A DNA stretch of 42,122 nt from a virus. Taxonomy: Duplodnaviria; Heunggongvirae; Uroviricota; Caudoviricetes. The position numbers and the translations under genes are program-made. A model generated the notes under the pieces. It was not told the DNA's origin. It did not search any database and worked only from the letters and a program-made list of their open reading frames with translations. Where the stretch lies: the IMG/VR virus record IMGVR_UViG_2541047913_000004; one strand, written 5' to 3'. Positions 3,966 to 42,122 of this stretch are shown here, piece by piece; position 1 is the first letter of the stretch, and each line of letters begins with the position of its first letter.

Positions 3966-3989
3966 TTTGCTGCTCCTCATCATATCGAC

Positions 3990-4330
3990 CCTGCAAGGTC
4001 GGTTGGTTTCTCCACAAAACAGAGAAGAACACCTGCGGTGGCAGCCGCCCGGATGGATTGGGTTATGAGCCCGTCGTCCGGTGATGCTCTTCTCTGTTTT
4101 GTAAAAAGGACGGTACCAGCCGGAAGCAAGGGTACAAGCTGGTACCGCCAGGACTACACACAGCATAAAGTTGTGGTGCCGGGTGCCTCCCGGTGCCTGG
4201 CGAAGGTTGCACACCAGGCGGGTGGGTATCCACAGAAGGTCGACTGTCAGCCTCAACCTTAACCCGCGTGCGCTGAGCCGCATTCACCACAACGCTAAGG
4301 ATTCTCTCTGGTTGAAAATACTTAGCTGTT
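3990..4330. ncRNA. Candidate structured non-coding element (unclassified); strand undetermined
   Basis: GC-rich block with no credible ORF in any frame, packed with perfect inverted repeats: a 15-bp stem 4014-4028/4088-4102 enclosing nested hairpins (4035-4048 and 4049-4053/4077-4081); a 10-bp stem 4111-4120/4138-4147 with a 17-nt loop; hairpins at 4179-4193 and 4195-4219. Flanked by AT-rich sequence. Confidence 0.3.
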
Positions 4331-4434
4331 ATGTGCCTGCTTTTAGCCACATCAGGCGAGGTGGACCTGGTTATTCCCCAACAACAAGGATTCGGTTAAT
4401 CTGGATATCCCCAACAACAATAAGAGTATTCAAT

Positions 4435-4950
4435 GTGATCGCTGAATTAACGGCAGCAATGACGGCTATTCGTGAAACAGCCCAGATTGCAAAACTAATG
4501 AACGAGGCAAAAACTCAATCTGAAGTAAATGCGGCTATTGGTGAGCTAAACTCAAAGCTTGCGTCTATTCAGCGCGAATGCGTGTCTCTCGTTGAACTGG
4601 TGGGCTCTTATCAAGAAATAAATGCTTCTCTCAAAGCTAAAATTGCAGAATTCGAAAACTTTGAGGCTCAGACGGAAGGCTATATCCTTAACCAACTTGA
4701 GTCGGGTACTTTTGTATACTCGAAGGAGGTAATCGTGAACGGTGGCAGCATAACCATGCATCTTTGCCCAAAATGTTTTGGACAAAAGATAGTATCGATA
4801 CTTCAACCATTCCCGGTTAGCGAAGATGAGCTTTTTCATAAAAGCAGGTGCCTCCACTGTGAAAATAAGTTTCTGATGAATAAAAATCCGGATTACGTAT
4901 CGCCTCCATCCATTGAGGAGTTGTCCAGAAAACTTAACGGCAATCTGTAG
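4435..4950 (+). CDS. Hypothetical coiled-coil protein with C-terminal zinc ribbon (CPKC...24 aa...CLHC); candidate lysogenic-conversion or exclusion factor
   Basis: GTG at 4435 with an AAGAG Shine-Dalgarno-like motif about 8 nt upstream (alternative ATG at 4459). N-terminal half is heptad-like and Glu/Lys/Ala-rich; C-terminal half has two CxxC pairs. The residue composition looks like a real protein, whereas the antisense ORF is Phe/Leu/Tyr-rich. Followed by its own intrinsic terminator. Confidence 0.6.
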   Translation: MIAELTAAMTAIRETAQIAKLMNEAKTQSEVNAAIGELNSKLASIQRECVSLVELVGSYQEINASLKAKIAEFENFEAQTEGYILNQLESGTFVYSKEVIVNGGSITMHLCPKCFGQKIVSILQPFPVSEDELFHKSRCLHCENKFLMNKNPDYVSPPSIEELSRKLNGNL

Positions 4951-4989
4951 ATTACTACTGTTGTGGATATCCAGATTGTTAAAGAGCTA

Positions 4990-5012: not shown

Positions 5013-5097
5013 GTTGCTAACGAATCATCCTGGACTTCATATGCCCCAGGCGGATACTTCGTGGGCGTCCTGCCTGTTTGTTGTTTCTCTTGGGTAC

Positions 5098-5125
5098 ATT
5101 ATGTATCTCAAAGGTACATTGTCAA
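5098..5125 (-). promoter_or_regulatory. pL-like early-left promoter with overlapping operator-like palindromes (OL)
   Basis: Minus strand has a perfect -35 TTGACA (complement of 5120-5125), a 16-nt spacer and -10 CATAAT (complement of 5098-5103). The palindrome TACAT-T-ATGTA (5095-5105) overlaps the -10, and a GGTACA motif is shared with the cI-cro intergenic operators. Confidence 0.55.
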
Positions 5126-5164: not shown

Positions 5165-5839
5165 TTAAGCTTTGATTTTGTATCTTCTTGGTTTTCCTGA
5201 GAAAATCACAGTTCCAATTATAGAGCAATTACCGTTGATCTTAATGTAAGGCTCAGGCCAGTTTGGGTTTAACGCTTTGAGATAACGCTGTGTCCCATCT
5301 TCTATCAACCTTTTGAAGGTGGTTTCACCTGTATCGTGCATCAATGCAATAACGTCGTCACCGTGGCAGGCAGGTACTTCAGGATCGACAAAAATCATGT
5401 CTCCCGGGCGGTACTCATCAATCATTGAATCACCTATCACCCGCAAGATATAAGTCATTTCCCCACAGGGTACAGGGCAGGGATACGTTTCTGCTGTGCT
5501 CAAATCAACCTCAGAATATCCAACTTCTTTCCATGCTCCGGCCTGTACCCATGATATGACAGGGACTAATGTGATTTGTTTATTAGTGATTGAAACATCA
5601 GGTTTTTTTGTGATGTTCGTTGTCTGGTGTTCTTGATCGAGCCATCCGACAGGCAGGTCGAAACATTTTTCTATGTGTCGTGCCATGCTGTCACCGATAT
5701 TTTTAGTAGCACCATCTCCCATAAACCTGCTGGTCTGGGTTGGCTCGCGATCAATCATAGTGGCAAAGGAAGAATTCCCGCCAACACCATCTCTCAGTTT
5801 TCTGGCGTTAGACCGCCGGATGTCATGGATTGTTTTCAT
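5165..5839 (-). CDS. cI: CI-type prophage repressor with LexA-like S24 autopeptidase domain, 224 aa
   Basis: C-terminal domain carries the Ser nucleophile in ...VIGDSM... and a downstream Lys (...TFKRL...), as in LexA/CI self-cleaving repressors. Divergently arranged with a Cro-like gene across an operator-containing intergenic region. Confidence 0.85.
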   Translation of the reverse strand: MKTIHDIRRSNARKLRDGVGGNSSFATMIDREPTQTSRFMGDGATKNIGDSMARHIEKCFDLPVGWLDQEHQTTNITKKPDVSITNKQITLVPVISWVQAGAWKEVGYSEVDLSTAETYPCPVPCGEMTYILRVIGDSMIDEYRPGDMIFVDPEVPACHGDDVIALMHDTGETTFKRLIEDGTQRYLKALNPNWPEPYIKINGNCSIIGTVIFSGKPRRYKIKA

Positions 5840-5929
5840 AACGAAATTAAAACCCTCGTACCGTTAAGGTACAAGTATCTTGAAGGTTCATTTCAATCAT
5901 GTAATATGTACATCGGAGGTACATATTGT
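5840..5929. promoter_or_regulatory. OR-like region: pR (rightward), probable pRM (leftward), operator palindromes
   Basis: Plus strand has -35 TTGAAG (5880-5885), a 16-nt spacer and -10 TAATAT (5902-5907) ahead of a GGAGG Shine-Dalgarno and the cro ATG. Palindromes GTACC-N5-GGTAC (5858-5872), ATGTA-ATATG-TACAT (5899-5913) and TGTAC-N7-GTACA (5907-5923) overlap the promoter. Confidence 0.6.
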
Positions 5930-6369: not shown

Positions 6370-6696
6370 ATGACTAAAAATACTCGTTTTTCCCCCGAAG
6401 TCCGTCAACGGGCAGTCCGTATGGTTCTGGAAAGTCAGAGCGAATATGACTCACAATGGGCGACAATTTGTTCCATTGCTCCAAAGATTGGCTGTACGCC
6501 GGAGACTCTGCGTGTCTGGGTTCGCCAGCATGAGCGGGATACCGGGGGCGGTGATGGAGGGCTCACCACCGCTGAACGTCAGCGTCTGAAAGAGCTGGAA
6601 CGTGAAAATCGTGAACTGCGCCGCAGTAACGATATCCTTCGCCAGGCTTCCGCTTATTTTGCGAAGGCGGAGTTCGACCGCCTCTGGAAAAAATGA
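6370..6696 (+). CDS. IS629 OrfA (transposase N-terminal HTH protein), 108 aa
   Basis: HTH and leucine-zipper-like sequence typical of IS3-family OrfA; ends in an A6 run (6688-6693) that overlaps the orfB start. Confidence 0.9.
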
Positions 6697-7583
6697 TGCC
6701 ACTGCTGGATAAGCTGCGTGAGCAGTACGGGGTCGGACCGCTATGCAGCGAACTGCATATTGCCCCGTCAACGTATTACCACTGTCAGCAACAGCGACAT
6801 CATCCTGATAAACGCAGTGCCCGTGCGCAGCGCGATGACTGGCTGAAGAAAGAGATACAGCGCGTATACGATGAAAATCACAAGGTATACGGTGTGCGTA
6901 AAGTCTGGCGTCAGTTGTTACGGGAAGGTATCAGAGTGGCCAGATGCACTGTGGCACGTCTCATGGCGGTTATGGGACTTGCCGGTGTTCTCCGGGGTAA
7001 AAAGGTCCGTACGACCATCAGCCGGAAAGCCGTTGCCGCAGGCGACCGCGTAAACCGTCAGTTCGTGGCAGAACGACCTGACCAGCTGTGGGTGGCTGAT
7101 TTTACTTACGTCAGCACATGGCGGGGCTTCGTCTATGTGGCGTTCATCATTGATGTGTTTGCCGGATACATCGTGGGGTGGCGGGTCTCATCGTCCATGG
7201 AAACGACATTCGTGCTGGATGCACTGGAGCAGGCGTTATGGGCCCGTCGACCGTCCGGCACGGTCCATCACAGTGATAAAGGTTCTCAGTATGTATCGCT
7301 GGCCTACACACAGCGGCTTAAGGAAGCCGGATTACTGGCATCAACAGGAAGTACAGGCGACTCGTATGACAACGCGATGGCGGAGAGCATCAATGGTCTT
7401 TACAAAGCGGAGGTAATACACCGTAAGAGCTGGAAAAACCGTGCAGAAGTGGAACTGGCCACACTCACGTGGGTGGACTGGTATAACAATCGACGATTGC
7501 TGGAAAGGCTGGGCCATACTCCTCCGGCAGAAGCAGAAAAAGCTTATTATGCTTCCATCGGAAACGATGATCTGGCAGCCTGA
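6693..7583 (+). CDS. IS629 OrfB (DDE transposase catalytic domain), 296 aa
   Basis: DDE/RNase H-fold integrase-like region (...WVADFTYV... ...HSDKGSQY... ...DNAMAES...). Lies in the -1 frame relative to orfA, so an OrfAB fusion by -1 frameshifting at the A6 run is expected. Confidence 0.9.
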
Positions 7584-41538: not shown

Positions 41539-42122
41539 TGGCATTCAGAATGAGTGAACAACCACGGACCATAAAAATTTATAATCTGCTGGCCGGAACT
41601 AATGAATTTATTGGTGAAGGTGACGCATATATTCCGCCTCATACAGGTCTGCCAGCAAACAGTACCGATATTGCACCGCCAGATATTCCGGCTGGCTTTG
41701 TGGCTGTTTTCAACAGTGATGAGGCATCGTGGCATCTCGTTGAAGACCATCGGGGTAAAACCGTCTATGACGTGGCTTCCGGCGACGCGTTATTTATTTC
41801 TGAACTCGGCTCATTACCGGAAAATGTCACCTGGTTATCCCCGGAAGGGGAGTTTCAGAAGTGGAACGGCACAACCTGGGTGAAAGATGCAGAAGCAGAA
41901 AAACTGTTCCGGATCCGGGAGGCGGAAGAAACAAAAAACAGCCTGATGCAGGTAGCCAGTGAGCATATTGCGCCACTTCAGGATGCTGCAGATCTGGAAA
42001 TCGCAACGGAGGGAGAAACCTCGTTGCTGGAAGCCTGGAAAAAGTATCGGGTGTTGCTGAACCGTGTTGATACATCAACTGCACCTGATATTGAGTGGCC
42101 TACGAACCCTGTCAGGGAGTAA
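41538..42122 (+). CDS. tfa: Tail fibre assembly protein Tfa, 194 aa
   Basis: 194 aa, coupled by TAATG to stf; lambda Tfa-like; its stop codon is the last 3 nt of the window. Confidence 0.9.

Follow-up and report, generated by a model that had tools for sequence, protein, structure and literature searches.

The window analysed here is a 42,122-nucleotide (nt) stretch of DNA (IMG/VR record IMGVR_UViG_2541047913_000004, Caudoviricetes), whose prophage sits at tRNA-Arg beside fimZ and is 100% identical to NZ_CP027312. The immunity genes are of the e14 type, with ymfK/cohE at 5165–5839 on the minus strand and ymfT/croE, and the subject of the analysis is a GC-rich region at positions 3990–4330, located in the early-left operon between the cI-like repressor gene and yfdP. 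The region is best explained as the template, on the minus strand, of a composite non-coding RNA that forms part of the pL transcript of an e14/SfV-type prophage, a transcript under repressor control and inducible by SOS. The region had been taken as one element in a preliminary description; instead, it is divided into two units, at 4326–4103 (unit 1) and 4102–4014 (unit 2), which together with the start of yfdP contain the following features.

4326–4294, minus: P0 hairpin, a stem of 13 base pairs (bp) with one mismatch and the loop AACCAGA, abutting P1
4293–4170, minus: STnc100/PasD-like core of 124 nt with five helices (P1, P2, P4, P5, and a 7-bp pseudoknot)
4293–4285/4178–4170, minus: P1, 9 bp, closing the core
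4282–4265, minus: P2, 6 bp with one bulged nucleotide
4260–4254, minus: 5' strand of the pseudoknot, AAGGUUG
4253–4220, minus: variable domain
4219–4212/4202–4195, minus: P4, whose loop holds the 3' strand of the pseudoknot, CAACCUU (4209–4203)
4194, minus: single A between P4 and P5
4193–4179, minus: P5, with the loop AGGCA
4169–4148, minus: single-stranded linker UUUAUGCUGUGUGUAGUCCUGG, 22 nt
4149–4109, minus: intrinsic terminator, a 13-bp hairpin of −23 kcal/mol, followed by C and U5 (4107–4103)
4102–4014, minus: Y-shaped long hairpin in the yfdP leader, in which two inner hairpins stand on a basal stem of 19 bp, G-U pairs included
4001–3986, minus: small hairpin
3978–3973, minus: Shine-Dalgarno sequence GAGGAG
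3965–3963, minus: start codon of yfdP

Across 4000–4300, the GC content reaches 0.57–0.59, compared with 0.37–0.47 in both flanks, which bears out the GC-richness noted previously, and the stems listed in the preliminary description are all present at their coordinates in a fold beyond chance. The minimum free energy (MFE) of the minus strand of 3966–4340 is −165 kcal/mol (z = −7.0), and none of 100 dinucleotide shuffles is equally stable; the plus-strand fold is weaker (z = −4.0). The stem 4014–4028/4088–4102 is a perfect helix of 15 bp, whose arms reach 25 nt at 84% complementarity, and on the minus strand with G-U pairs allowed it forms 19 consecutive pairs enclosing two inner hairpins. Similarly, the perfect 10-bp stem 4111–4120/4138–4147 is extended on the minus strand to the 13 bp of the terminator hairpin (4149–4137/4121–4109). 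The RNA strand is the minus strand, with the same direction as the leftward early operon, because its z-score is better and several stem extensions rely on G-U pairs possible on this strand alone. The hairpins described near 4179–4193 and 4195–4219 are real and correspond to P5 and P4, respectively; both are parts of a larger pseudoknotted fold.

The region is found in 3009 of the 5426 complete Escherichia coli genomes, also in SfV, SfIV, SfII, PhiR49, and similar phages, and, at 78% identity, in ST64B and 118970_sal3 of Salmonella. A mosaic joint at about 4150 divides two modules, and the stretch 3966–4150 retains 97% identity in many Stx2, cdtI, and mEp460-type phages whose upstream sequence differs. 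The Y hairpin is approximately 97% identical in many Stx and other lambdoid phages; its stem survives three double changes and several G-U/G-C exchanges valid on the minus strand only, with less sequence diversity available for covariation than in the core. In the linker (4148–4169), the motif UUGCUGUGUG(U/A)AGUCUU is kept among relatives across three different terminators, and because it is conserved despite these differing terminators, the linker is likely a candidate seed. The terminator lies 22 nt after P1, in the manner of the Rho-independent terminator of STnc100 RNAs.

Conserved fold of the core and its likeness to STnc100

Core sequences were collected from annotated phages and by scanning IMG/VR for the invariant block GGTGAATGCGGCTNAGCGCACGCGG, together giving 62 unique cores, and a GTDB scan with CACCNGGAGGCACCNGGCAC provided 82 additional unique cores. 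A curated alignment of 28 sequences, comprising the window-, P1-, and Qin-type cores and canonical STnc100, was N-padded so that MAFFT left it intact, and it was hand-fitted for P4 and the pseudoknot. In the consensus, a P1 of 9 bp is followed by a two-nucleotide AA junction and by a P2 of 6 bp with a bulge and a 5-nt loop. A short spacer then leads to the 5' strand of the pseudoknot and to the variable domain of approximately 30–60 nt. The 3' part consists of a P4 of 8 bp with the 3' strand of the pseudoknot in its loop, the single A, and a P5 of 5 bp with the loop AGGCA, directly followed by the 3' strand of P1. When 4330–4100 is folded to its MFE without constraints, P0, P1, P2, P4, P5, and the terminator are recovered.

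In the 28-sequence alignment, 98.0% of the cells are standard pairs, compared with 30–37% when the partners are slid by 1–3 columns, and 23 of the 35 pairs are changed on both sides, including all seven pseudoknot pairs and seven of the eight P4 pairs. P2 of the window type (GCGGC.../GC-CGC) differs from that of canonical STnc100 (CCCCC.../GG-GGG) by three swapped pairs, the helix being fully exchanged by compensatory changes. The 7-bp pseudoknot of the window pairs AAGGUUG with CAACCUU. Per-lineage mononucleotide shuffles of the pseudoknot are weak (p 0.01–0.24), because its two strands are complementary in composition, and they were replaced by an alignment-free partner-shuffle test, in which the best helix between the sequence following P2 and the P4 loop was scored for cognate against non-cognate partners. 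With eight lineages, permuting the partners brings the helix sum up to the cognate value in only 20 of 40,320 cases. For the 82 GTDB cores, the cognate sum is 536, a value that none of 2000 shuffles of the partners reaches (419±9.9), and a pseudoknot of at least 6 bp occurs in 68 of them, with 64 distinct sequence pairs. The core shares this conserved pseudoknotted fold with STnc100, and the fold is kept by compensatory changes.

Two further helices were considered and dropped. A P3 closing the variable domain (GG/CC, GA/UC, GC/GC) has only 2 bp and is broken in locus L043, and a longer GCGGG/CCCGC alternative clashes with P2 and P4.

Compensatory changes also bear on whether the region encodes a protein, as a ymfH-like gene, or consists of palindromes working purely at the DNA level, both of which are highly improbable. 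The homologue in e14 of K-12 (89.7% identical) carries the coding sequence annotation ymfH, and open reading frames (ORFs) of 95 amino acids on the minus strand (4063–4350) and of 74 amino acids on the plus strand do cover the region of the window, so that the earlier statement that no credible ORF exists holds for conserved frames and not for ORFs as such. The reading frame differs among e14, the window, and ST64B, and the tblastn matches to YmfH fall into three different frames in the window and likewise in ST64B; PGAP labels a 100%-identical copy (strain 2013C-3181) a frameshifted pseudogene; and a Pfam search of the ORFs in the region gave no family match. Simultaneously, the compensatory changes are abundant in the core helices and the pseudoknot, and, like the G-U changes, they are strand-specific and consistent with RNA pairing, which does not favour an account by DNA palindromes only. 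A phenotype has been attributed to ymfH, in that the toxin RcaT of retron-Sen2 is triggered by an overexpressed e14 ymfH clone (Bobonis et al., bioRxiv 10.1101/2020.06.22.160242). A structured RNA could equally explain this result, and, because the ymfH ORF is probably not a gene, such an RNA could be the active agent of the clone (L001 3002–3313).

Rfam was run at gathering thresholds, at which nothing was found in the region, and then with E-value thresholds, both in a 601-nt search and in the whole window. In the latter runs, the minus strand of 4323–4100 aligned end to end with STnc100 (RF02076, model positions 1–206) at 42.4 bits (E = 7.3e-8 in the 601-nt search and 5.1e-6 in the whole window); the region, previously thought to match no known RNA family, thus has a full-length match below threshold. 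Sub-threshold matches to RF02076 occur at nine homologous loci, eight of them distinct, since PPompW and K-12 Qin represent the same dicF-dicB element. The scores are 29.2 bits in e14, 35.1 in ST64B, 37.5 in 118970_sal3, 40.6 in phiES15, 33.4 in phage P1, 41.9 in SJ46, 38.7 in PPompW, and 34.4 in K-12 Qin, compared with 207.7 bits for the canonical copy of 933W, which lies downstream of stx2B. The terminator part was compared with DicF (RF00039); it scores 15.9 bits (E 0.99), and its counterpart in e14 scores 28.5 bits (E 0.028), both short of the gathering score of 48. Other weak Rfam matches, including ftsZ-DE and the hairpin ribozyme (E 0.6–5), are noise, and a link to ManS/STnc500 and sialic acid proved unrelated.

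The likeness to STnc100, EcOnc27, and PasD extends over P1, the AAU junction, the bulged P2, P4, the single A, and the P5 loop AGGCA. It also includes the invariant minus-strand blocks GGUGAAU (4289–4283) and CACCNGGAGGCACCNGGCAC (4196–4177), both present in the window, a terminator after the core, and the character of a prophage-borne RNA of about 200–230 nt. Judged by its sequence, unit 1 appears to be a divergent member of this known prophage small RNA (sRNA) class; the family is known from Rfam, EcOnc27, and PasD, and hence it is not categorically new. Compared with canonical STnc100, there are several differences. Besides the exchanged P2, the pseudoknot sequence and the variable domain diverge, and the terminator of the window is DicF-like. 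The window copy lies in the early-left (pL) operon before yfdP, whereas the canonical copies lie in the late operon, after Q, tRNAs, and stx and before nanS-p or lysis genes. Furthermore, the Rfam structure line is drawn without a pseudoknot, and an RNAalifold consensus fold presented for PasD and STnc100 (bioRxiv 10.64898/2026.05.13.724894) makes no mention of one.

DicF, encoded in the dicBF operon of Qin, is similar in being an sRNA inside a repressor-controlled, early-left-type operon of a lambdoid prophage. Its terminator hairpin is related (GGCGGUA.CAG...), and an RNA 3' end in the e14 linker would leave a fragment of approximately 50–60 nt, compared with the 53 nt of DicF. In addition, the dicF-dicB spacer of Qin contains the same core as the window. 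However, the sequence 5' of the window hairpin is unrelated to that of DicF, the score of the window is far under the threshold, and the order is reversed, with the core preceding the DicF-like hairpin in the window and DicF preceding the core in Qin.

Genomic placement of the core and the pL transcript

In every phage case, the core is situated within a long operon and on the strand of that operon. It lies between ymfI and xisE in e14, where it is annotated as 'ymfH', and it precedes a yfdP homologue in ST64B and 118970_sal3, kil in phiES15, a kilR-type gene in Escherichia ruysiae, and tciA of the ban operon in P1 and SJ46. In Qin and PPompW, the core is located between dicF and dicB, and its helix P1 is lengthened to approximately 20 bp by the flanks GUGAAUUUUGU/ACAAAAUUCAU, with a compensatory change in L043 (K-12 Qin, L010 2436–2600; L008; IMG/VR type II). 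At other loci, different DicF-like sRNAs are found upstream of the Qin-type core. Canonical STnc100 follows Q, tRNAs, and stx and precedes nanS-p or a holin gene.

A third core type occupies the exact position of the window core in mEp460 (L136, approximately 1690–1830) and Stx2a_1447 (L137), on the minus strand. It keeps P1 (GUUGUGGUG/CACCACAAC), the flanks, the terminator, and the Y hairpin, and its interior differs, with a P2 of GCGC-AGGCUGAU-GCGC, a P5 of CCGG-AGAUCAGCA-CCGG, and no STnc100 match; the core interior appears to be a swappable cassette. Tandem arrays of two or three cores on the same strand, 220–600 nt apart, occur in GTDB genomes of Pantoea, Superficieibacter, Trabulsiella, and others (L236 3740–4742, L214 225–1404, L244, L190, and L208).

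A chromosomal subfamily is present in 13 species (Kosakonia, Klebsiella, Enterobacter, and others), in which the core belongs to the 5' leader of a KdgM-family porin gene next to typA-glnA (L197 1324–1482 and 12 other GTDB loci, including L151, L165, L173, L175, L178, L191, L206, L221, L232, and L253). These leaders contain a conserved promoter/operator-like block upstream of the core and, just before the start codon, a conserved hairpin and a Shine-Dalgarno sequence, with no terminator before the ORF.

In the window, the transcript that carries the element is defined by the following features upstream of it.

5125–5120 and 5103–5098, minus: pL promoter, TTGACA and CATAAT with a 16-nt spacer, an 11/12 match to sigma-70
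5082–5100 and 5102–5120: two operator-like tandem repeats of approximately 19 nt (TGTAYCTC...GGTACAT), overlapping pL
5008–4989, minus: leader hairpin, directly 5' of boxA and approximately 100 nt downstream of pL
4987–4976, minus: perfect rrn-type boxA, GCUCUUUAACAA, the sole match within one mismatch in the window

Two more occurrences of the operator-like repeats lie at pR, in the interval that separates the repressor gene from cro (5872–5924), and the promoter at 5125–5098 is pL with its operators. The preliminary description had placed the element on the path of the leftward early transcript, and this placement is confirmed: the pL transcript passes the leader hairpin and boxA, runs antisense through a zinc-ribbon gene (4435–4950, plus), and then enters the element. 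The leader hairpin, read on the plus strand, is the terminator of the zinc-ribbon gene. No N gene is found between pL and the element, and the boxA suggests a Nus-factor/boxA protection of the long untranslated pL leader against Rho in an N-less phage. A promoter of its own is not apparent for unit 1, since no sigma-70-like site lies upstream of P0 at the scan threshold, and processing from pL is favoured for this reason. A candidate picked by eye, CTGATG-16-CATAAC, was rejected as only a 7/12 match.

A put- or nut-like element of processive antitermination, as had been proposed for this region, would suit a phage with no evident N homologue, in which the element stands in a long operon just before an intrinsic terminator. 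A boxA-like motif, R-A-R-UGCUCU-Y, including UGCUCUU directly 5' of helix P1, is indeed found within the 12 nt upstream of that helix in phage P1 (L003, GGAAUGCUCUUUCC), SJ46 (L004), 118970_sal3 (L007), mEp460 (L136), L109, and L124, whose flanks are otherwise diverged. In the window and e14, however, this flank is degenerate (GAAUCCUUAGC; GAGAAUCCUUAGC) and forms the 3' arm of P0, and the perfect boxA of the window is a separate feature approximately 700 nt upstream, at 4976–4987. The put of HK022, like lambda nut, is a nascent-RNA element of a lambdoid early operon, and the window phage resembles HK022 in having no visible N. Put comprises approximately 70 nt and two stems just downstream of pL and pR (PMC9378689), whereas the core is a 124-nt pseudoknot with five helices located approximately 800 nt from pL. 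The HK022 put region does not match the STnc100 model, there is no sequence or model similarity to put or nut, and a boxB/N pair is absent. Moreover, the Qin core follows the DicF terminator, canonical copies occur without a boxA in Q-antiterminated late operons, and the e14 data place RNA ends at the terminator or close to it. The core does not resemble put, and a role in antitermination is very unlikely.

RNA ends in e14 and the proposed mode of action

In the Term-seq tables of K-12 (Adams et al., PMC7815308 supplements), three minus-strand 3' ends are listed in e14, at 1201423, 1201257, and 1201195. Mapped through the printed flanking sequences, they correspond to window position 4323 at the 5' edge of P0 (a strong end), 4156 inside the linker, and 4093 in the 5' arm of the Y hairpin, and the outer ends are 228 nt apart. 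By analogy with e14, the equivalent at 4323 is a candidate 5' processing site of the RNA. The same supplements also include a Term-seq end in Qin, located 25 nt upstream of dicB where the core has its 3' foot. Induction of ymfH by azidothymidine depends on LexA cleavage and occurs alongside that of xisE and intE (PMC11228462).

These ends at structure boundaries, including the one at the foot of the Qin core, also agree with the idea that the region is only a processing or stability module of the early-left transcript, with RNase III/E sites and exonuclease barriers and no role in trans. Long helices are available for such a module, namely the 13-bp P0, the Y hairpin with 19–25 bp, and the Qin-type P1 of approximately 20 bp with its compensatory change in L043, and in the analogous Qin operon, DicF biogenesis uses RNase III and RNase E, the 5' end of a 190-nt DicF precursor being made by RNase III (bioRxiv 10.1101/2023.04.14.536235). 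Nevertheless, invariant loops and junctions and a pseudoknot kept across Enterobacterales exceed the needs of a nuclease site, the single-stranded linker is conserved, and the relatives bind Hfq and form many RIL-seq chimeras; processing alone is unlikely as the full account.

EcOnc27, equal to canonical STnc100, is reported as an Hfq-binding sRNA downstream of stx2B, and its overexpression is reported to raise the fimZ and espA transcript levels (PMC12711010). In EDL933, all 11 annotated STnc100 copies have transcriptome reads, and STnc100_4 was confirmed by Northern blot (PMC5331693). PasD1 and PasD2 of enteropathogenic E. coli are Hfq-dependent, Northern-confirmed, and, by number of interactions, among the top sRNA candidates of RIL-seq (PMC8550237), and PasD is related to STnc100 by Zhu, Shabalina, and Storz (bioRxiv 10.64898/2026.05.13.724894).

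The reading that is preferred, with a probability of roughly 55% for its parts jointly, takes unit 1 as a pL-derived, Hfq-assisted, trans-acting sRNA of the STnc100/PasD class together with an attenuating terminator, and unit 2 as a leader hairpin of yfdP. The preliminary description had offered a stand-alone sRNA or a leader or processing element; both would apply, the sRNA to unit 1 and the leader to unit 2, on separate halves of the region. Transcripts from pL would cross the zinc-ribbon gene in the antisense direction, and the boxA at 4976–4987 would probably protect them from Rho. They would be cut at the 5' edge of P0 and would end at or just past the terminator, by termination or processing at 4103–4093, to give a stable RNA of approximately 230 nt, and a further cut in the linker would release a DicF-sized 3' fragment of approximately 50–60 nt. 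By analogy with its relatives, the window copy would bind Hfq, with whose help the released RNAs would pair with targets in trans; the seed would probably be the linker, and the pseudoknotted core would form a stabilizing 5' module. The terminator would also limit read-through into yfdP-yfdQ-yfdR...int, and the read-through mRNA would bear the Y hairpin, probably as an RNase III or stability site. Strand, fold and covariation, the relationship to the family, the terminator, the setting of promoter and operators, and the RNA 3' ends of the e14 homologue are shown, whereas Hfq binding of the window copy, its seed and targets, the attenuation, and the nucleases involved, RNase III among them, are what we infer.

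Several observations weigh against this reading. The STnc100 match of 42.4 bits falls short of the RF02076 gathering score of 47 bits, and the U-tract of the terminator has only 5 U. The e14 end equivalent to 4093 lies approximately 10 nt beyond the U-tract, and because of this position it may arise by processing rather than termination. A search for linker targets within the window returned only the locus itself, with no second complementary site. A highly conserved pseudoknotted fold is atypical of a mere sRNA scaffold. A terminator is found within 150 nt in just 22 of 80 GTDB cores, and cores without one stand directly before dicB, P1 tciA, kilR, and the chromosomal KdgM porin gene, a placement which may argue that the primary role of the core is in cis.

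A primary role in cis, the main rival of this reading though rather unlikely, would make the core a sensor or leader, either a riboswitch-like aptamer or a protein-binding site, that controls the downstream gene, and the 'sRNAs' would be terminated or processed leaders. In its widest form, the core would be a cis-regulatory aptamer for a ligand or protein, widespread in Enterobacterales, used in phage early and late operons and in the P1 ban operon ahead of cell-division inhibitors (dicB, kil, kilR, and tciA) and other cargo genes, and also in the KdgM porin leader, a proposal we likewise consider rather unlikely. The plan of the core resembles that of riboswitch aptamers, since P1 closes it, its junction and loop nucleotides are invariant, its stems covary, and it has a pseudoknot, a variable-length insertion, and, in the KdgM porin leaders of the 13 species, a 5'-untranslated position, so that a conserved aptamer-like fold with covariation is present. 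The terminator-less cores, the canonical copies before the nanS-p esterase gene, and the strong terminator 22 nt after P1 in the window point in the same direction. However, no switching expression platform is found in the folds: a mutually exclusive antiterminator is not found, the terminator forms without dependence on the core whether the full-length, a truncated, or a 3'-only sequence is folded, and a 7-nt complementarity between P4 and the terminator in the window and e14 is not kept in ST64B or phiES15. The downstream genes are heterogeneous in function and suggest no single ligand, and the relatives are Hfq-bound RNAs (PMC8550237, PMC12711010).

Novelty and neighbouring features

In the literature consulted, no account was found of the divergent early-operon subtype or its identity with 'ymfH', of the core's presence between dicF and dicB, ahead of tciA in P1, and in porin leaders, or of the strongly supported pseudoknot. 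An annotated K-12 gene, the y-ome member ymfH of e14, is reassigned to a structured RNA, as are, in prophages of E. coli, thousands of annotations as 'hypothetical protein' or pseudogene. One pseudoknotted fold with strong covariation is common to STnc100/EcOnc27/PasD, to the Qin spacer separating dicF from dicB, to the leader of tciA in P1, and to the chromosomal porin leaders. This widens a family so far catalogued only as prophage sRNA lacking an assigned function, variants of which are statistically associated with the outcome of haemolytic uraemic syndrome. The helices, the pseudoknot, and the linker provide concrete targets for mutation, and cis action of the family becomes a testable possibility. 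In addition, e14-type N-less phages are seen to carry an rrn-type boxA in the pL leader.

Around the element, the 171-amino-acid zinc-ribbon protein (4435–4950, plus) has no Pfam family above threshold and gives weak coiled-coil-type matches. Its gene opposes pL, as do opposite-strand genes upstream of the core in e14 (ymfI), mEp460, 118970_sal3, and P1 (upl-plp). In the 105-nt spacer between P0 and the zinc-ribbon gene, an exact 13-nt direct repeat, TCCCCAACAACAA, occurs at 4375–4387 and 4408–4420, 33 nt apart, and may act as a regulatory site or belong to the zinc-ribbon promoter. Downstream of stx2B in 933W (L131 1501–1760), AsxR (88 bits) is encoded on the opposite strand right after STnc100, the two being convergent and nearly abutting. 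Elsewhere in the window, two Rfam matches lie above threshold, IS009 at 41881–42079 (plus, 226 bits) and the ALIL pseudoknot at 6651–6767 (plus, 120 bits), a frameshift signal of the IS3 family which implies an insertion sequence in the early-right region.

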